60,573 nt of DNA from an uncultured Planctomycetaceae bacterium (GCA_964417755.1 CAYQJH010000003.1:1-60573); one strand, 5' to 3'; counted from the stretch's first letter, positions 13,100 through 44,184 are shown. Notes: generated by a model not told the origin, from the letters alone. Translations and numbers: made by a program.

Positions 13100-13191
13100 A
13101 TTCCGACAATCCTGAAGCAGTGATGCAGTAGCAGCAGACAACAACAGGCACGGCGGCTCTAAAGGGCTGCCGTGCCTGTTGATTTCATTGC
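12804..13191 (+). repeat. Direct repeat copy 1 (388 bp, identical to 43797-44184)
   Basis: Matches the second copy base for base by eye, at an offset of 30993 bp. It covers the last ~98 codons, the stop and the hairpin. Near-identity extends upstream to ~12664. Confidence 0.93.
13142..13181. terminator. GC-rich hairpin, probable bidirectional terminator
   Basis: CAACAGGCACGGC...GCCGTGCCTGTTG is a perfect 13-bp stem, extended by wobble pairs, lying between convergent genes. U-tracts are weak. Confidence 0.6.
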
Positions 13192-14253
13192 ACGCTGATC
13201 AGGCTGCCTCACTGCGACCAGGTGGGCCTCGTCAGCCGCCAAGCGATGCAGATCACCGGTCATAATCTCGTGGGCTGCTTTCCTGGCTGCTGGACAAGCG
13301 TAGGCCAGTTTGCCCAGCAAATATGGGCCGAGGGTTCGCCCCGCCTGAGCGTATCGTCCGGAAAAGACGATAGCGTCCAGGCCGCCCAGGGCGGCAATGC
13401 CCATCCCGCAGGCCAGGAGAATGCGATATCGCAACAAGTCGCGTGCCAGCCGATGCGACGACGCAGGGCTAAGCACGCTGTCCAGATTGACGGCTGAACC
13501 GGCCAAGGCCGCGATGCCGCTGTCTCTCGTGAGCATCTGGTTGATCTGTTCAGGGCCCAGGTGCAGTCTGCTGCTCAAGGCCAGCACGATGCTGGGGTCA
13601 AGTTCGCCACAGGCTTTCTCGCCTGGCAGGCCCTCCATCGGCGTGGCGCCGCTGGTCACCATAAGGGGGCATCTGCCAACAACGGCAGCCAGTTCCGGCC
13701 TTTTGTCCAGGCAAATTGACAGCACGCGAGCAGGTCCTTGCAGATGTTCCTGGCAAAGGTGCGCTGCGTGCCGACAGGCAGCGGCGTGGAACAGGCCGTG
13801 ATAGCCGAATCGCCGCAAGCGGGGATGGCTTGATGCCTCCAGTCCATAGAACTGCTCGCGCGGAGGTAGGCCAACGAAGAAGGCCGTCTGGAATGACATC
13901 GCCACCGGCAGATGTGGAAAAGCTCCGCGAATTTCCTGCAGAAGCAGGCGGCAGACCGGCAGATGCAGGGGGGCCTGCTGCGCAAGGGCCTCCAGATCGT
14001 CCAGTGTCTGCGAGCCAGCCAGCACGGGCCCGGCGAAGCGCTCTCCGCCGTATGGCACAATGATGCTGATGAGATCGATCTTGCCGCCCATTGCGCGAGC
14101 GTCGGCCGTCAACTGAGTGAGCAATTGACTTATGGCCGTTGCCTCGCTGAATGGTCCATGAATGCTCGCCTGACGCAGTGCCTGACGCGATTGGTCGGCA
14201 AAATAGGAGCAGGCGATTGTTCGCAACGAAGGGGCAAGGACGAGTATGTTCAT
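13159..14253 (-). CDS. Acetate kinase-like protein with degenerate catalytic motifs
   Basis: Colinear with AckA (APLHLP, FQTAFF, RRFGYHGLFH, ATPMEGLPG..ACGELDP, GGLDAIVFSG) but lacks NxGSSS, HR.VHGG and TNEE. RBS GGAG before the ATG at 14253. Confidence 0.85.
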   Translation of the reverse strand: MNILVLAPSLRTIACSYFADQSRQALRQASIHGPFSEATAISQLLTQLTADARAMGGKIDLISIIVPYGGERFAGPVLAGSQTLDDLEALAQQAPLHLPVCRLLLQEIRGAFPHLPVAMSFQTAFFVGLPPREQFYGLEASSHPRLRRFGYHGLFHAAACRHAAHLCQEHLQGPARVLSICLDKRPELAAVVGRCPLMVTSGATPMEGLPGEKACGELDPSIVLALSSRLHLGPEQINQMLTRDSGIAALAGSAVNLDSVLSPASSHRLARDLLRYRILLACGMGIAALGGLDAIVFSGRYAQAGRTLGPYLLGKLAYACPAARKAAHEIMTGDLHRLAADEAHLVAVRQPDQRAMKSTGTAAL

Positions 14254-14286: not shown

Positions 14287-15495
14287 TTATGCTGCCGCGA
14301 TAGAGGCCCTCACAAGGCGATGCGTCTGCCGCGCGATGGCCAACTCCTCGTTGGTGGCGATGACGAGGAGCCTGACGGGTGAATCAGCCGTGGCGATATC
14401 GGCCGGCAAGTTGGCTAAGCATTCATTCTTCCGCGGGTCGATATTGACGCCCATCGCTTCCAGGCCACTGCACAGGGCCCAGCGGACATTGCTGATTGTC
14501 TCGCCAATGGTATCCGTGAAGATGATTGCCTTTGCCCTGCCCACTGCCGCCAGGTAAGCCCCGAGATACTTGCGAATGCGCCACAGGTACACCTGCGTCG
14601 CGAGGCGGTTTTGGCCGTCGCCAGCCTCGCCAGCAGCTTTGAGCAAGGCATCGCGAATGTCAGAGGACTGCCCCGTCAGGCCCAGCACGCCGCTCTTGTT
14701 GTTGAGCAGCCTTTCGACCGCCTGGCAATCGCCCATCGCGCCGCAAAGCAATTGCAACGTGACAGCCGGGTCAAGATCGCCGCATCGCGTACTCATCACC
14801 AGGCCCTGCAGAGGCGAGTAGCCCATCGTGTTGTCAATGCTGCGCCCGCCGACGATCGCGCAGAGACTGGCTCCGCCGCTGCCTAAGTGGCACGACACGG
14901 CGTCTAGTTGATCCATCGGGCAATGCAGCAGCTTGACCGCCTCCTGCGCCACGTACTGATGGCTGGTCCCGTGGAAGCCGTACTTGCGGATTCCCAGCTT
15001 GCGGCGCACATCGCCAGGAATGGCGTACGTGCGGGCGTGTCGCGGAATGTGCGAGTGAAAGGCGGTGTCGAACACGACTACCTGCGGCAGCGAGGGATAT
15101 TGCTGCATGCATGCCTTGACCAGTGCGATGGACGGCGGATTGTGGATCGGCGCCAGGTCGGCCACCGCATCCAACTTCACCAGGTCGCTGGCGAAGATTC
15201 GTGCATGCTCGCTGAAGAGTTGCCCGCCGTGGACGAACCGGTGGCCGATCGCATCGATTGGCTGGCGGCCCTTGGATAGAAGGGCCATCACCTCCGCAAA
15301 GGCAGATGCGTGGCTGTCCATCGGCGTCTGGTGCGTGCTGCTCTGCCCGCCGGCCTTGTGAATGATCCTTGATGGACAAGCCGTCGGCGGGCCGATCCGC
15401 TGCGCTTCGCCGCCGGCCATTTCACGCTCGCTCGGCATATCGATCAGCCGATACTTCAGCGATGAACTCCCGCAATTAAATACCAGAATGTTCAC
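14287..15495 (-). CDS. ackA: Acetate/propionate kinase
   Basis: VFNCGSSSLKY, GHRFVHGG, LAPIHNP, FDTAFH, RKYGFHGTSH, CHLGSGAS, TRCGDLDP, ATNEELAIA. GTG start at 15495 after AGAGGA. Confidence 0.92.
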   Translation of the reverse strand: MNILVFNCGSSSLKYRLIDMPSEREMAGGEAQRIGPPTACPSRIIHKAGGQSSTHQTPMDSHASAFAEVMALLSKGRQPIDAIGHRFVHGGQLFSEHARIFASDLVKLDAVADLAPIHNPPSIALVKACMQQYPSLPQVVVFDTAFHSHIPRHARTYAIPGDVRRKLGIRKYGFHGTSHQYVAQEAVKLLHCPMDQLDAVSCHLGSGGASLCAIVGGRSIDNTMGYSPLQGLVMSTRCGDLDPAVTLQLLCGAMGDCQAVERLLNNKSGVLGLTGQSSDIRDALLKAAGEAGDGQNRLATQVYLWRIRKYLGAYLAAVGRAKAIIFTDTIGETISNVRWALCSGLEAMGVNIDPRKNECLANLPADIATADSPVRLLVIATNEELAIARQTHRLVRASIAAA

Positions 15496-15621
15496 GTCCG
15501 TCCTCTCTGAAAGCCTCAAAGCAGGGCGATGGACGTCCTTGTCCACCGCGCCGCCACTTCAGTCAGAAATCGCATCATGCGATTCGCAAACGCATCTACG
15601 GTCAAAACGCTGCTGGGATAG

Positions 15622-16830
15622 TTAAATCTCATCCGGCGTCCAGCCAAATACCGGTACGCCCACAAGGCTGTGCACGATGGCCGCCGTGCCGTAGACCGCC
15701 GTTGAAATCGCTTCCAGGGCGACCGATTCATCTCCGCGGTGAGCCGAAGCTTCCTCGCCTGGGCCATAGCCGATCGTCGGCACGGCGAAGTCGTTGACCA
15801 GCACCCCGCCAGCCGTGCCCATGCCCAGTTGCCCCAGCTTCCATCGCCCCGTCTTGGACGAGCACTGCGCCGCAGCCAGGGCCTGCCGCGAGCGCTCCAT
15901 CAGCGGGTGAAACGGGTCCGTCTGCCATGCGTTGACCATGCGGCGCACCAGCGTCGTCGTGCCGTTGTAGAGCTTGCGCTCCTCGTGGCGCACGGCCACC
16001 TCGACAGCCACATTGCCAATCGAATTAGCCACCAGGTTGGCGCCGTGCCGCAGGGCGTGAATGGCCTGCTTTGAACCTCCGAATTCGCTCAGCCGCCTGG
16101 TCACGCCGATGATCGCCTGACGCAGCCCCTGTCGCTGCGTAAAGGCGACGGGCCGAACCAGGACATCCTGCGACCCGCCTTCGCCGGCAGTACAATCGCG
16201 ATGAATCGCCCGGGCTGCGTCGTCGACCTCAAACGGATTGGCGCCCTCCACGCGGATGTCCAGCTCCGCCCAGCCGTCATGCCCGTAGTAAAGGCCCAGC
16301 CCGGTCGGTTCGCCCAGGACGGCGAAATCCGCCTGCAACTCCAGTTCGCCCAGCGTGTGCTCCAGCAAGTGGCGCACGCCCACGCTACAGCCATTCTCCT
16401 CATCCACCGTCGCCGCCACTACAAGGTTGCCCCGCAGCGGAAGCAGGCTTCGCTTAATCAGACAGCCGGCATAAATCTGGGCAGCCAGATTGCCTTTGGC
16501 GTCGCTGGCTCCCAGCCCCGTCAAGCGCCCGCCGGCGATGGTGGGCTGGTACGGGTCATTCGTCCACTGCTTCATGTCAGGAGCCACGGTGTCCATGTGG
16601 CTCACCAGCAGCACGGTAGGCCCGCTATCGCGGCCGAACATGGCGGCCACCACGTTGCCTGCCCCATCGCGGATGACCTTGTCGTAACCCAGTTCACGCA
16701 TGCGGCCCTCGACCACACCGGCCAGGGCCTGTTCCTGGCATGACACGCTGGGAATCGAGATCAACTGCTGTGCGAACTGCGCCACCTCGGCCGACATGCC
16801 TTCCTTCTTCTGCTGAAGCATCTGGTACAT
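15622..16830 (-). CDS. M20/M25/M40 metallohydrolase (ArgE/DapE/YgeY-like)
   Basis: Zn-ligand motifs SHMDTV, GLGASDAKG, VDEENG, GEPT and AHRGDE. RBS AAGGA before the ATG at 16830. Confidence 0.9.
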   Translation of the reverse strand: MYQMLQQKKEGMSAEVAQFAQQLISIPSVSCQEQALAGVVEGRMRELGYDKVIRDGAGNVVAAMFGRDSGPTVLLVSHMDTVAPDMKQWTNDPYQPTIAGGRLTGLGASDAKGNLAAQIYAGCLIKRSLLPLRGNLVVAATVDEENGCSVGVRHLLEHTLGELELQADFAVLGEPTGLGLYYGHDGWAELDIRVEGANPFEVDDAARAIHRDCTAGEGGSQDVLVRPVAFTQRQGLRQAIIGVTRRLSEFGGSKQAIHALRHGANLVANSIGNVAVEVAVRHEERKLYNGTTTLVRRMVNAWQTDPFHPLMERSRQALAAAQCSSKTGRWKLGQLGMGTAGGVLVNDFAVPTIGYGPGEEASAHRGDESVALEAISTAVYGTAAIVHSLVGVPVFGWTPDEI

Positions 16831-16882
16831 GAGATATTCCTTAAAATACTCGCGCCGCCGAAATTGGCGGCAACAGCCATAT

Positions 16883-16899
16883 AGCAATCGCCATGCCAG
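16883..16899 (-). promoter_or_regulatory. sigma54 (-24/-12) promoter for the M20-ackA-ackA2 operon
   Basis: The minus strand reads CTGGCATGGCGATTGCT, which matches YTGGCACG-N4-TTGCW with exact GG-N10-GC spacing. It lies ~55 bp upstream of the M20 start. Confidence 0.85.
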
Positions 16900-16989
16900 A
16901 ACCTGGCGAGGCCGCGCTCATAGCCGCAAGAGCTGCATCACCGCCGAATTGCAGTTTCACGGGGACATTCACGAGCGAGTGTGGTAGTA

Positions 16990-17024
16990 TTTCATATTGC
17001 AATGGCTAATATTGCATTATGAAA
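16990..17024. promoter_or_regulatory. Palindromic putative upstream activator (enhancer) site
   Basis: TTTCATATTGCAAT-N7-ATTGCATTATGAAA is an inverted repeat (13/14 match), 90-125 bp upstream of the -24 box and just before the activator ATG. Confidence 0.65.
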
Positions 17025-17033
17025 GACCCCTGA

Positions 17034-18656
17034 ATGAAAGCACAAGACCTGAAGCTCGATGAACTCGTCCGTTTTGCCGAGGGCAGGATCAGCCTGCATG
17101 GCCGCCGACTGGCACTGCATGACCTGAGAGCCTTTACGCAGTTGCGCCAGGACCTTCTGACGATGGTGGGCCCGGAGCAGGCCCGCCGAATCTTTACGCG
17201 GTTTGGCTATTTTTGGGGCGAAGCTGACGCCGCCGCCCTCAAACGCGTATTCAAATGGGACAGCCTGCGCGATTACCTGCTGGCCCTACCACGAATGCAC
17301 AGCCTCCAGGGCATGTCCCGCATGCTCGTCAAGCGTCTGGATGTCGACCCGCATGACAGCCAGTTCCGCATGGACCTGACCTGGCACGACAGCGGCGAAA
17401 TCGAAGATCGCCCAGAGGGCCTGCCGTCCAACGAGACCCTGTGCTGGCTGATTGTTGGGTACGCAAGTGGCTTCGCATCCTGGTGCCAGGGCCGCGAGAT
17501 ATTCTTTATTGAGCATAAGTGCTGCGCCCGCGGGGAGAGAGTCTGCGCAGCCATCGGCAAGGACCGGCAGTCCTGGGGCGATGAGATCAAGGAGTACCTG
17601 AGGTACTATCGCACCGACGACATTGTCGGAAAGATTCGCGACCTGTCGGCCCGGCTGCAGAAGGCCACCCGCGAACTGGCCGTCCAGCGCCGCCAGCTGG
17701 GTCTCTCGGACAGCGGCCCCCAGCCCGCATGGCCGGAAGTCCGCTCCAGCGGCTTTCAGCGGGTGCTGGAGATGGCCCATCGCGTGGGCCCCTACGATAG
17801 TTCGATCCTCATCACGGGCGAGAGCGGCGTGGGCAAGGAAGTGCTCGCACGGTACATCCACCGGCTCTCCATCCGATCCAAGCTTCCATTCCTGGCCGTC
17901 AACTGCGGCGCCCTTCCCGAAACGTTGCTGGAGAGCGAGTTGTTCGGCCACAAGGCCGGTGCTTTTACCGGCGCCATCGGCGATCGTGTCGGCCTGTTCG
18001 AGCAGGCCAGCGGCAGCACGCTGTTCCTGGACGAGATCGGCGACATCTCGCCCAACATGCAGGTCAAACTTCTTCGCGTGTTGCAGGAAAAGGAGATCAT
18101 GCCCGTCGGCGCCAGCAGGGTGCGAAAGGTAGACGTGCGGATCATCGCCGCGACGAACAAGGACCTCCATGCCGAAATCGCCGCCGGAAGATTCCGCGAA
18201 GACCTCTACTACCGCCTGAGCGTCATCGAGATCGACATACCACCGCTTCGCCAGCGGCAGGAAGATGTGCTGCCCCTGGCACGCACCTTCGTCAGCCGCC
18301 TGGCCCGCCGGCTGAAGATGCCTGCACTGCGTCTGGATGCCGCCTGCCTGGACTACCTGCTGAACTACGCCTGGCCGGGCAATGTCCGCGAACTGGAGAA
18401 CGCCATCGAGCGTGCGGCGGTGCTGTCGCGCGAAGGAACAATCCTGCCGGAGCACTTGCCGCCGGGCATCCTGCAGGCCAGGCAGCGGCCCGTCAAGGCG
18501 CTTTCCGTTCGACGCACGCTGGCCCAGGTCGAGAAGGAACATATCCAGGCGGTGCTGGAGTCCACTGGCGGCAACCGCACGCAGGCGGCGCAGATCCTGG
18601 CCATCAGCCCGGCTACGTTGTGGCGCAAGTTGCGGTCAGAGAATCAGCCCTCATGA
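17034..18656 (+). CDS. sigma54-dependent Fis-family activator with XylR-N/V4R sensory domain
   Basis: N-terminal 'GRISLHGRRLAL...TRFGYFWG' and V4R 'GYASGFAS...FFIEHKCCARGERVC'. AAA domain with GESGVGKE, ESELFGHKAGAFTGA, LFLDEIGD and FREDLYYRL. C-terminal HTH GGNRTQAAQILAISPATLWRKL. Confidence 0.95.
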   Translation: MKAQDLKLDELVRFAEGRISLHGRRLALHDLRAFTQLRQDLLTMVGPEQARRIFTRFGYFWGEADAAALKRVFKWDSLRDYLLALPRMHSLQGMSRMLVKRLDVDPHDSQFRMDLTWHDSGEIEDRPEGLPSNETLCWLIVGYASGFASWCQGREIFFIEHKCCARGERVCAAIGKDRQSWGDEIKEYLRYYRTDDIVGKIRDLSARLQKATRELAVQRRQLGLSDSGPQPAWPEVRSSGFQRVLEMAHRVGPYDSSILITGESGVGKEVLARYIHRLSIRSKLPFLAVNCGALPETLLESELFGHKAGAFTGAIGDRVGLFEQASGSTLFLDEIGDISPNMQVKLLRVLQEKEIMPVGASRVRKVDVRIIAATNKDLHAEIAAGRFREDLYYRLSVIEIDIPPLRQRQEDVLPLARTFVSRLARRLKMPALRLDAACLDYLLNYAWPGNVRELENAIERAAVLSREGTILPEHLPPGILQARQRPVKALSVRRTLAQVEKEHIQAVLESTGGNRTQAAQILAISPATLWRKLRSENQPS

Positions 18657-18889
18657 AATTCAAGCATTCGCAGCGGATCCAGCAGCAGGAAGACATCCCG
18701 GCTGGCCAGGTAGGCCGTGATTGCCTGCGCCATTCGCTGCTTGACCTGCGCAGTGGTCTGGCCGTACGCGACGCAGCCGACCAGCGAAGGACAACTGGCT
18801 CTGAATTGAGCCAGAGACAGCCTCTCGATGTTCACGGTCAGCCTGCCGTTTGGCGGCAGCAACAGCGTATCTTCAATCTGGCGGTTCAT
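18644..18889 (-). CDS. HicB-like antitoxin domain protein (orphan)
   Basis: 'FRASCPSLVGCVAYGQTTAQVKQRMAQAITAYL' matches the HicB RNase-H-like core pattern. RBS GGAGG precedes the ATG. Confidence 0.6.
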   Translation of the reverse strand: MNRQIEDTLLLPPNGRLTVNIERLSLAQFRASCPSLVGCVAYGQTTAQVKQRMAQAITAYLASRDVFLLLDPLRMLEFHEG

Positions 18890-44092: not shown

Positions 44093-44184
44093 ATTCCGAC
44101 AATCCTGAAGCAGTGATGCAGTAGCAGCAGACAACAACAGGCACGGCGGCTCTAAAGGGCTGCCGTGCCTGTTGATTTCATTGC
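43797..44184 (+). repeat. Direct repeat copy 2 (identical to 12804-13191)
   Basis: Same sequence as copy 1. It diverges at 43796 and at 44185. Confidence 0.93.
44135..44174. terminator. GC-rich hairpin, probable bidirectional terminator (second copy)
   Basis: Same stem-loop as 13142-13181, again between convergent genes. Confidence 0.6.

Follow-up and report, generated by a model that had tools for sequence, protein, structure and literature searches.

A predicted sigma-54-controlled cassette of an M20 hydrolase, a remodelled acetate kinase and a kinase-fold paralogue in an uncultured Planctomycetaceae bacterium

The four-gene cassette

A 60,573-nt stretch of DNA from an uncultured Planctomycetaceae bacterium (GCA_964417755.1 CAYQJH010000003.1:1-60573), here called the window, carries the gene of a sigma-54 activator that is divergent to three co-directional genes on the minus strand, encoding an M20 metallo-hydrolase (M20), an acetate kinase (cAck) and PSK, a paralogue with the acetate-kinase fold. 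The best explanation of this locus, which we favour with moderate confidence, is an autonomous four-gene cassette in which a sigma-54 switch is combined with amide hydrolysis, a remodelled kinase and a pseudo-kinase. Judged from the sequences, the activator is always paired with two boxes that lie two helical turns apart and about 95-110 bp upstream of the predicted operon promoter. The cassette combines known regulatory logic with strong conservation, a patchy occurrence across phyla and a ready operator/promoter model. A literature search for the gene combination found no description of the cassette; an earlier note on this DNA had proposed an undescribed catabolic unit. That note had reported the M20 and acetate kinase genes, both of which were confirmed, but had missed PSK because its range ended at 14287. 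The features of the locus are as follows.

17034-18656, plus strand: sigma-54 activator, 540 aa, divergent to the operon (Pfam and NCBIfam)
15622-16830, minus strand: M20 metallo-hydrolase, 402 aa, predicted to be cytoplasmic (Peptidase_M20, E 1.4e-22)
14287-15495, minus strand: cassette acetate kinase (cAck), 402 aa (TIGR00016, 364 bits, cut-off 293)
13159-14253, minus strand: PSK, acetate-kinase-fold paralogue, 364 aa (Pfam Acetate_kinase, E 6e-29)
16990-17024: tandem candidate upstream activator sites (boxes at 16990-17002 and 17012-17024)
16883-16899, minus strand: predicted sigma-54 -24/-12 promoter (CTGGCAT-GGCGA-TTGCT)
16969-16998, plus strand: candidate sigma-70 promoter of the activator gene, inferred from orthologues
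16853-16875, minus strand: stem-loop GCCGCC-AATTTC-GGCGGC at the predicted 5' end of the operon mRNA
13142-13181: long hairpin between convergent genes, likely a terminator, overlapping the PSK stop codon

The gene starts given in the earlier account were corrected. M20 starts with the ATG at 16830, for which AAGGAA provides the Shine-Dalgarno (SD) sequence; a longer frame from the TTG at 16887 would cover the promoter. The kinase starts with the GTG at 15495 behind GAGAGGA, and PSK with the ATG at 14253 behind CAGGAG, 33 nt past the kinase stop, within an open frame that reaches 14286.

A PSK alignment was used to scan species-representative genomes, yielding 80 loci, and 80 metagenome contigs were added; nearly all carriers of the cassette are metagenome-assembled genomes. 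The unit of a divergent activator gene followed by M20, kinase and PSK recurred, complete or cut by a contig end, in about 110 public loci from at least 10 phyla. The carriers found by the PSK scan belong to Planctomycetota, Lentisphaerota, Verrucomicrobiota, Myxococcota, Omnitrophota, Sumerlaeota, Gemmatimonadota, Elusimicrobiota, Auribacterota, Spirochaetota and others. Complete cassettes were found on 35 of the 80 metagenome contigs, the remainder being cut by contig ends, and the gene order was the same on every contig of sufficient length except one, L150 (3193-9098, metagenome), which carries the kinase and PSK genes without M20 or activator. Two divergent genes for POT-family peptide transporters lie immediately upstream of the kinase-PSK pair on L150, a weak hint at peptide-like substrates. 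Six loci, five from genomes and one from a metagenome contig, have a Pta gene between M20 and kinase, which ties the kinase to acetyl-phosphate/acetyl-CoA metabolism. In an Omnitrophota locus (L061:4132-6635) the kinase gene is preceded by a tandem pair of M20 paralogues with 47% and 39% identity to the window M20.

Relative to their counterparts in the window, the activators were 49-63% identical, the M20 proteins 39-61%, the kinases 52-65% and the PSKs 34-49%. The pairwise identities of the four proteins were correlated over 58 loci (r = 0.84-0.90), a pattern indicating that they co-evolve. In a phylogenetic tree, 77 cassette kinases formed one clade and 77 PSKs another, with a support of 100 each, and both clades stood apart from 13 planctomycete housekeeping kinases. 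When 400 other Planctomycetota genomes were sampled, a PSK orthologue was detected in one, the other matches being ordinary kinases of about 30% identity; the cassette is therefore rare and patchy. All-against-all clustering of the flanking ORFs gave shadow ORFs and unrelated genes and no other conserved neighbour, and extra operon members or a transporter were rejected on these grounds. Of the 70 genes next downstream, some 40 run convergently to the cassette, and the Pfam domains of these 70 neighbours are unrelated.

Sigma-54 promoter and paired boxes

On the minus strand, 53 nt before the M20 ATG, lies the predicted promoter, cTGGCATggcgaTTGCT (16899-16883). The spacing from GG to GC in CTGGCATGGCGATTGCT (16899-16883, minus strand) is canonical: the two elements are 12 bp apart, fit TGGCAC-N5-TTGC and are kept in orthologues. 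The pattern TGGCAYN5TTGCW had a single match in the 60.6-kb window, namely this promoter (0.16 expected), and rpoN (sigma-54) is encoded in the host genome. A motif search upstream of orthologous operons, of the kind proposed in the earlier note, was carried out with expected counts taken from shuffles. At most one mismatch to TGGCAC-N5-TTGC was found in 46 of 61 intergenic regions (0.3 expected); the usual distance to the M20 ATG was 52-82 nt. The -24/-12 promoter that had been proposed is thus borne out by its unique match in the window, its spacing and its conservation.

The palindrome described earlier near the activator start is real, with arms of 17 nt (16987-17003 and 17011-17027) that are 88% complementary, but two 13-bp inverted repeats, TTTCATATTGCAA (16990-17002) and TTGCATTATGAAA (17012-17024), describe it more accurately. 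Both have the form TTTCA-N3-TG(A/C)AA, and their centres are 22 bp apart. No other sequence in the window fits TTKCAN3TGMAA (0.23 matches expected), and a search of the 3.66-Mb assembly gave no second pair that would mark further regulon members. At least two TTTCA-N3-TGAAA boxes were present in 48 of the 61 orthologous regions (0.7 expected), their starts being separated by 21 bp (28 loci), 22 bp (10 loci) or 20 bp (6 loci). The distance from the box midpoint to the -24 element was about 95 bp in most loci and 109 bp in the window. On the other side, 9 nt separate the end of the window boxes from the activator ATG; across loci the activator-proximal box begins 7-16 nt ahead of this ATG, commonly right next to a GGAG SD sequence.

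Being AT-rich, with a -10-like CATAAT, the boxes might be promoter or operator elements of the activator gene that are bound by another factor, the sigma-54 match being fortuitous. We regard this as highly improbable: boxes, promoter and the spacing of about 95 bp travel with the activator across at least 10 phyla, no other regulator is conserved nearby, and the promoter matches far exceed the shuffle expectation. The predicted sigma-54 circuit is, as far as sequence comparison can tell, real, dedicated and conserved.

The boxes may also act on the activator gene itself. Of 45 regions, 28 had a TTGACA sequence (at most one mismatch) in the direction of the activator gene and no more than 32 nt before the distal box, against 5.2 expected; its distance to that box peaked sharply at 13-14 nt (16 loci). 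In many loci this position places a CATAAT-like -10 of the activator gene within the distal box. The corresponding sigma-70 candidate in the window has a weak -35, TTCACG (16969-16974), and a -10, CATATT (16993-16998), that also lies within the distal box; a consensus promoter scan of the window gave no match at 16969-16998. Autorepression of the activator, suggested in the earlier note, gains comparative support because the boxes overlap the activator SD and, in many loci, its -10, although the -35 of the window itself is weak; the predicted geometry of the boxes supports this mode of control. The stem-loop at 16853-16875 (z = -2.5 in the window) is not conserved, the mean z across loci being -0.47. 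It is therefore regarded as a local feature, and a riboswitch or attenuator in the leader was rejected.

The activator

The domains XylR_N (72 bits, cut-off 23), Sigma54_activat (E 4.5e-69), AAA_lid_14 and HTH_8 (E 3.8e-15) were all detected in the activator above the Pfam thresholds. GAFTGA is located at residues 309-314 and is kept as G[AS]FTGA across orthologues, and Walker A is intact. Pfam and NCBIfam thus confirm the divergent XylR/DmpR-type activator with intact GAFTGA that had been proposed. Its sensor had been named a V4R domain; since the V4R match reached 22.4 bits, below the cut-off of 31 bits, this part is best read as a DmpR/XylR A domain. NCBIfam MobR scored 368 bits against a cut-off of 999 bits. 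A role in anti-phage defence was rejected, as PADLOC matched just the generic AAA+ portion.

The closest solved relative of the activator is CapR/DmpR (6iy8; residues 11-466, E 8e-101), and the sensor part aligned with the sensor domains of CapR/DmpR, MopR and PoxR (E 1e-29 to 5e-21). With DmpR/CapR, MopR, PoxR and XylR (PDB 6iy8, 5kbe, 5fru) the cassette activators share the order A domain, AAA+ with GAFTGA, HTH_8, as well as the Cys-Glu-Cys-Cys zinc site, the pocket Trp and, in most cases, the phenol-type His. The zinc-site residues C137, E160, C163 and C171 (E-x2-C-x7-C spacing) are invariant in 62 of 62 orthologues, the pocket Trp W117 is kept in 61 and the phenol-type His H89 in 43. The phenolic hydroxyl is anchored by His in DmpR, MopR and PoxR and by Tyr in XylR (bioRxiv 10.1101/2021.01.17.427014). 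It is a reasonable guess from these residues that the effector is a small aromatic or hydroxylated compound. The lack of a transporter in the cassette would fit a permeant or endogenous ligand.

The cassette and this group have in common, moreover, a divergent target operon and a pair of palindromic sites that lie about 100 bp upstream of a -24/-12 promoter. In XylR, too, these sites overlap the promoter of the regulator itself. The cassette differs from the DmpR/XylR group in its targets, which are an M20 hydrolase and an acetate-kinase pair and not an oxygenase or aromatic pathway, in its mostly anaerobic hosts from uncultured PVC-group bacteria (Planctomycetota, Verrucomicrobiota and allies), Omnitrophota and Myxococcota, and in the box TTTCA-N3-TGAAA, which is a sequence of its own.

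The M20 hydrolase

The di-metal site of M20 is intact: H78, D110, E144, E174 and H364 are kept in 69-70 of 70 orthologues and E145 in 58. Its relatives in the PDB are DapE, ArgE and LysK-type deacylases. No NCBIfam family cut-off was reached, so that membership in the M20 superfamily alone is shown; the best partial match was YgeY (188 bits, cut-off 321), followed by DapE-ArgE (118 vs 218 bits) and ArgE (112 vs 412 bits). An M20_dimer domain was not detected by Pfam. YgeY is a ureidohydrolase that cleaves albizziin at its ureido group, as demonstrated in 2025 (PMC12507026). With the M20A deacylases ArgE, DapE and LysK and with YgeY the cassette enzyme shares the catalytic domain, the di-metal ligands, the general-base Glu and a similar length; it differs from them in its sub-threshold scores and in a family-specific motif, GA(A/S)DCKG. 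The ArgE-like M20 enzyme of the earlier note is thus supported as a member of the M20 superfamily, and N-acyl deacylation is plausible from these comparisons.

The acetate kinase and its paralogue

The catalytic residues Asn7, Arg91, Asp148, His180, Arg241 and Glu384 and the PHOSPHATE1 motif are kept in 76-77 of 77 cassette kinases, and the acetate pocket is canonical (Val105, Ile/Leu134, Phe191, Pro). The donor site is changed in three places. PHOSPHATE2 reads HLGSGGAS, with Ser for Asn211 and one inserted Gly; LOOP3 reads MSTRCGD, with Ser for Gly239; and ADENOSINE reads FTDTIGE, with Thr for Gly331, vs FT(A/G)G(I/V)GEN in housekeeping kinases. These changes were found in 95-100% of the 77 cassette kinases, whereas the housekeeping kinases of the hosts keep Asn, Gly and Gly. 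None of the three ATP contacts of the ATP-dependent acetate kinase (EC 2.7.2.1), Asn211, Gly239 and Gly331, is thus retained. Their replacement in the Methanosarcina enzyme MtACK lowers ATP-dependent activity 6- to 200-fold (PMC4390882).

The changes resemble those of the pyrophosphate (PPi)-dependent acetate kinase of Entamoeba histolytica, EhACK (4h0o, EC 2.7.2.12), an activity (PPi-ACK) described as known solely from that organism (PMC5931981). Over the 46 residues from PHOSPHATE2 to LOOP3, EhACK was the best PDB match, ungapped and with 29 of 46 residues identical, whereas all ATP-dependent enzymes needed a gap over this stretch. EhACK and its look-alikes from Anaerolineaceae share with the cassette kinase a PHOSPHATE2 loop that is extended, contains a second Gly and has Ser/Thr for Asn211; an extended PHOSPHATE2 loop together with an ADENOSINE Asp has been reported in Entamoeba and four Anaerolineaceae only (PMC5517563). 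In EhACK, moreover, LVMSTRCGD is identical (Ser for Gly239), and ADENOSINE has Asp at 330/322 and a residue other than Gly at 331/323. In the numbering of EhACK, the ATP cleft is reportedly occluded by T201, D322, Q323, M324 and E327 (PMC5931981). Of the marks of this type, the cassette kinase has Asp322, the additional Gly, a Ser where EhACK has Thr201, and the Ser of LOOP3, but neither Gln-Met nor Glu327. The cassette kinases make up a large bacterial clade with donor-site marks of the PPi-dependent Entamoeba enzyme. Unlike EhACK, the cassette kinase adjoins a degenerate paralogue and is under predicted sigma-54 control.

That paralogue, PSK, was compared in 77 members and lacks the PHOSPHATE1, PHOSPHATE2 and ADENOSINE loops and Arg241. 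NxGSSS, HLGNGAS and GIGEN are gone, HLGNGAS being replaced by CLEPRPE and GIGEN by SGRY; Arg241 is Thr or Ser, Asp148 is Glu, and Arg91 is Ile in the window copy. The AF2 model (pLDDT 83.7, pTM 0.82) had only acetate and propionate kinases as top Foldseek matches (TM 0.65-0.72), which indicates that the modelled protein keeps the acetate-kinase fold of the ASKHA superfamily, and part of the carboxylate pocket is kept as well. From its lost motifs, PSK is most likely a non-catalytic partner or regulator of the kinase. Phosphorolysis of an N-acetyl amide to acetyl-phosphate by PSK was rejected as thermodynamically unfavourable by our own estimate. The PSK family comprised 203 protein clusters at E<=1e-20, none of which has a name other than 'acetate kinase'; the best 120 of the 203 had 38-97% identity, and ESM Atlas searches returned generic names only. 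PSK thus represents a well-populated family of pseudo-enzymes, with at least 200 clusters.

The earlier note had proposed that the acyl group is conserved as acyl-phosphate. The kinase that this requires was confirmed, but its donor site resembles the EhACK type, and EhACK runs in the opposite direction, strongly favouring the conversion of acetyl-phosphate to acetate and PPi (PMC5931981). The note may thus be mistaken about the co-substrate and the direction of the kinase. The corresponding assimilatory pathway, in which M20 deacetylates an N-acetyl compound, the kinase uses ATP to form acetyl-phosphate, Pta converts this to acetyl-CoA and PSK is an accessory, accords with the proximity of M20 to ArgE, DapE and LysK in the PDB, with the canonical acetate pocket, and with Pta, which lies within the operon in six loci and elsewhere in the genome of the window. 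We consider it unlikely, given that this genome already has a canonical Ack and Pta elsewhere, that the donor site is without the three residues whose replacement affects MtACK (PMC4390882), that an EhACK-type enzyme strongly favours acetate formation (PMC5931981), and that the best family match of M20 is a ureidohydrolase (PMC12507026).

The host genome also encodes an H+-pyrophosphatase (H+-PPase) and pyruvate,phosphate dikinase (PPDK), which makes a PPi economy of the host plausible. A housekeeping acetate kinase gene was located about 3 kb from a membrane H+-pyrophosphatase gene (G000 contig C71: 9688-10443, 13327-15495). An inducible energy branch could be built from these parts: acetyl-CoA would be converted by Pta to acetyl-phosphate and by the kinase to acetate and PPi or ATP, the PPi being used by the H+-PPase and in PPi-dependent glycolysis once the effector reports stress or a certain substrate, and M20 merely feeding an amino acid into fermentation. 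The EhACK-like donor site, the PPDK and H+-PPase, the Pta in some operons and the mostly anoxic habitats of the hosts (digesters, fens, groundwater and a sulfidic spring, according to the sequence records) agree with such a branch. It nevertheless appears improbable, as the M20 hydrolase and the DmpR-type sensor are hard to account for and most cassettes are without Pta.

Proposed mechanism

In the four-gene cassette that we favour, dimers of the activator would occupy the two boxes. A small membrane-permeant effector, probably hydroxy-aromatic-like, would bind the zinc-stabilised A domain and free the AAA+ domain, which would then oligomerise, loop to the sigma-54 holoenzyme and open the promoter. 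While on the boxes, the activator would cover its own SD and -10 region, so that its synthesis would be held down. The enzymology is the weakest part of the proposal. M20 would hydrolyse an N-acyl or N-carbamoyl amide in the cytoplasm. The kinase would interconvert acetate and acetyl-phosphate, and because its donor pocket shows the same kind of remodelling as that of the PPi-dependent Entamoeba enzyme, PPi and phosphate (Pi) may take the place of ATP and ADP as co-substrates. PSK, presumably unable to bind a nucleotide, would most likely serve as the non-catalytic partner or regulator.

Several observations weigh against this explanation. At full length the kinase scores 328 bits with the ATP-dependent Methanosarcina enzyme and 247 bits with EhACK, the former being closer, and it has Thr-Ile where EhACK has Gln-Met and no equivalent of Glu327; for the first two reasons PPi use is treated as a lead and not as a finding. 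Published conversions of ATP enzymes with these residues failed, and the donor-site signature is therefore no proof of PPi use. The phenol-type His is substituted in 19 of the 62 activators. Clustering of the flanks and a Pfam scan revealed no transporter or downstream catabolic gene that would indicate the substrate. The window copies of M20, PSK and the activator deviate from residues that are invariant in their families, and together with the poor -35 of the activator gene this suggests that the window copy may work less well.

It is a possible but doubtful extension that the kinase is a bacterial Pi/PPi-dependent acetate kinase with PSK as its obligate non-catalytic partner. If this were true, the cassette would be an inducible module linking amide hydrolysis to the acetyl-phosphate/PPi pool and the first bacterial, genetically contextualised case of an activity known only from Entamoeba, and it could mark the bacterial lineage in which the PPi-ACK activity of Entamoeba arose. 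The cassette lays out the partners of a PPi-ACK-like kinase, namely M20, PSK and sometimes Pta, along with a regulator that would sense the inducer.

Sequence peculiarities of the window copy

The deviating residues of the window copy are Ala for Cys111 of M20 (Cys in 69 of 70), Leu for Gly85 of the activator (Gly in 56 of 62), and Ile for Arg76 and Gln for Glu133 of PSK, both near-invariant in the family. The constraint on this copy may be relaxed.

An ORF of 81 aa (18644-18889, minus strand) overlaps the 3' end of the activator gene convergently. At the other end of the locus, the hairpin at 13142-13181 faces a convergent giant gene, and its 40 nt are exactly repeated at 44135-44174, after a second giant gene. 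The 3'-terminal codons of PSK therefore lie in duplicated sequence, and the native 3' end of the gene may have been overwritten by it.

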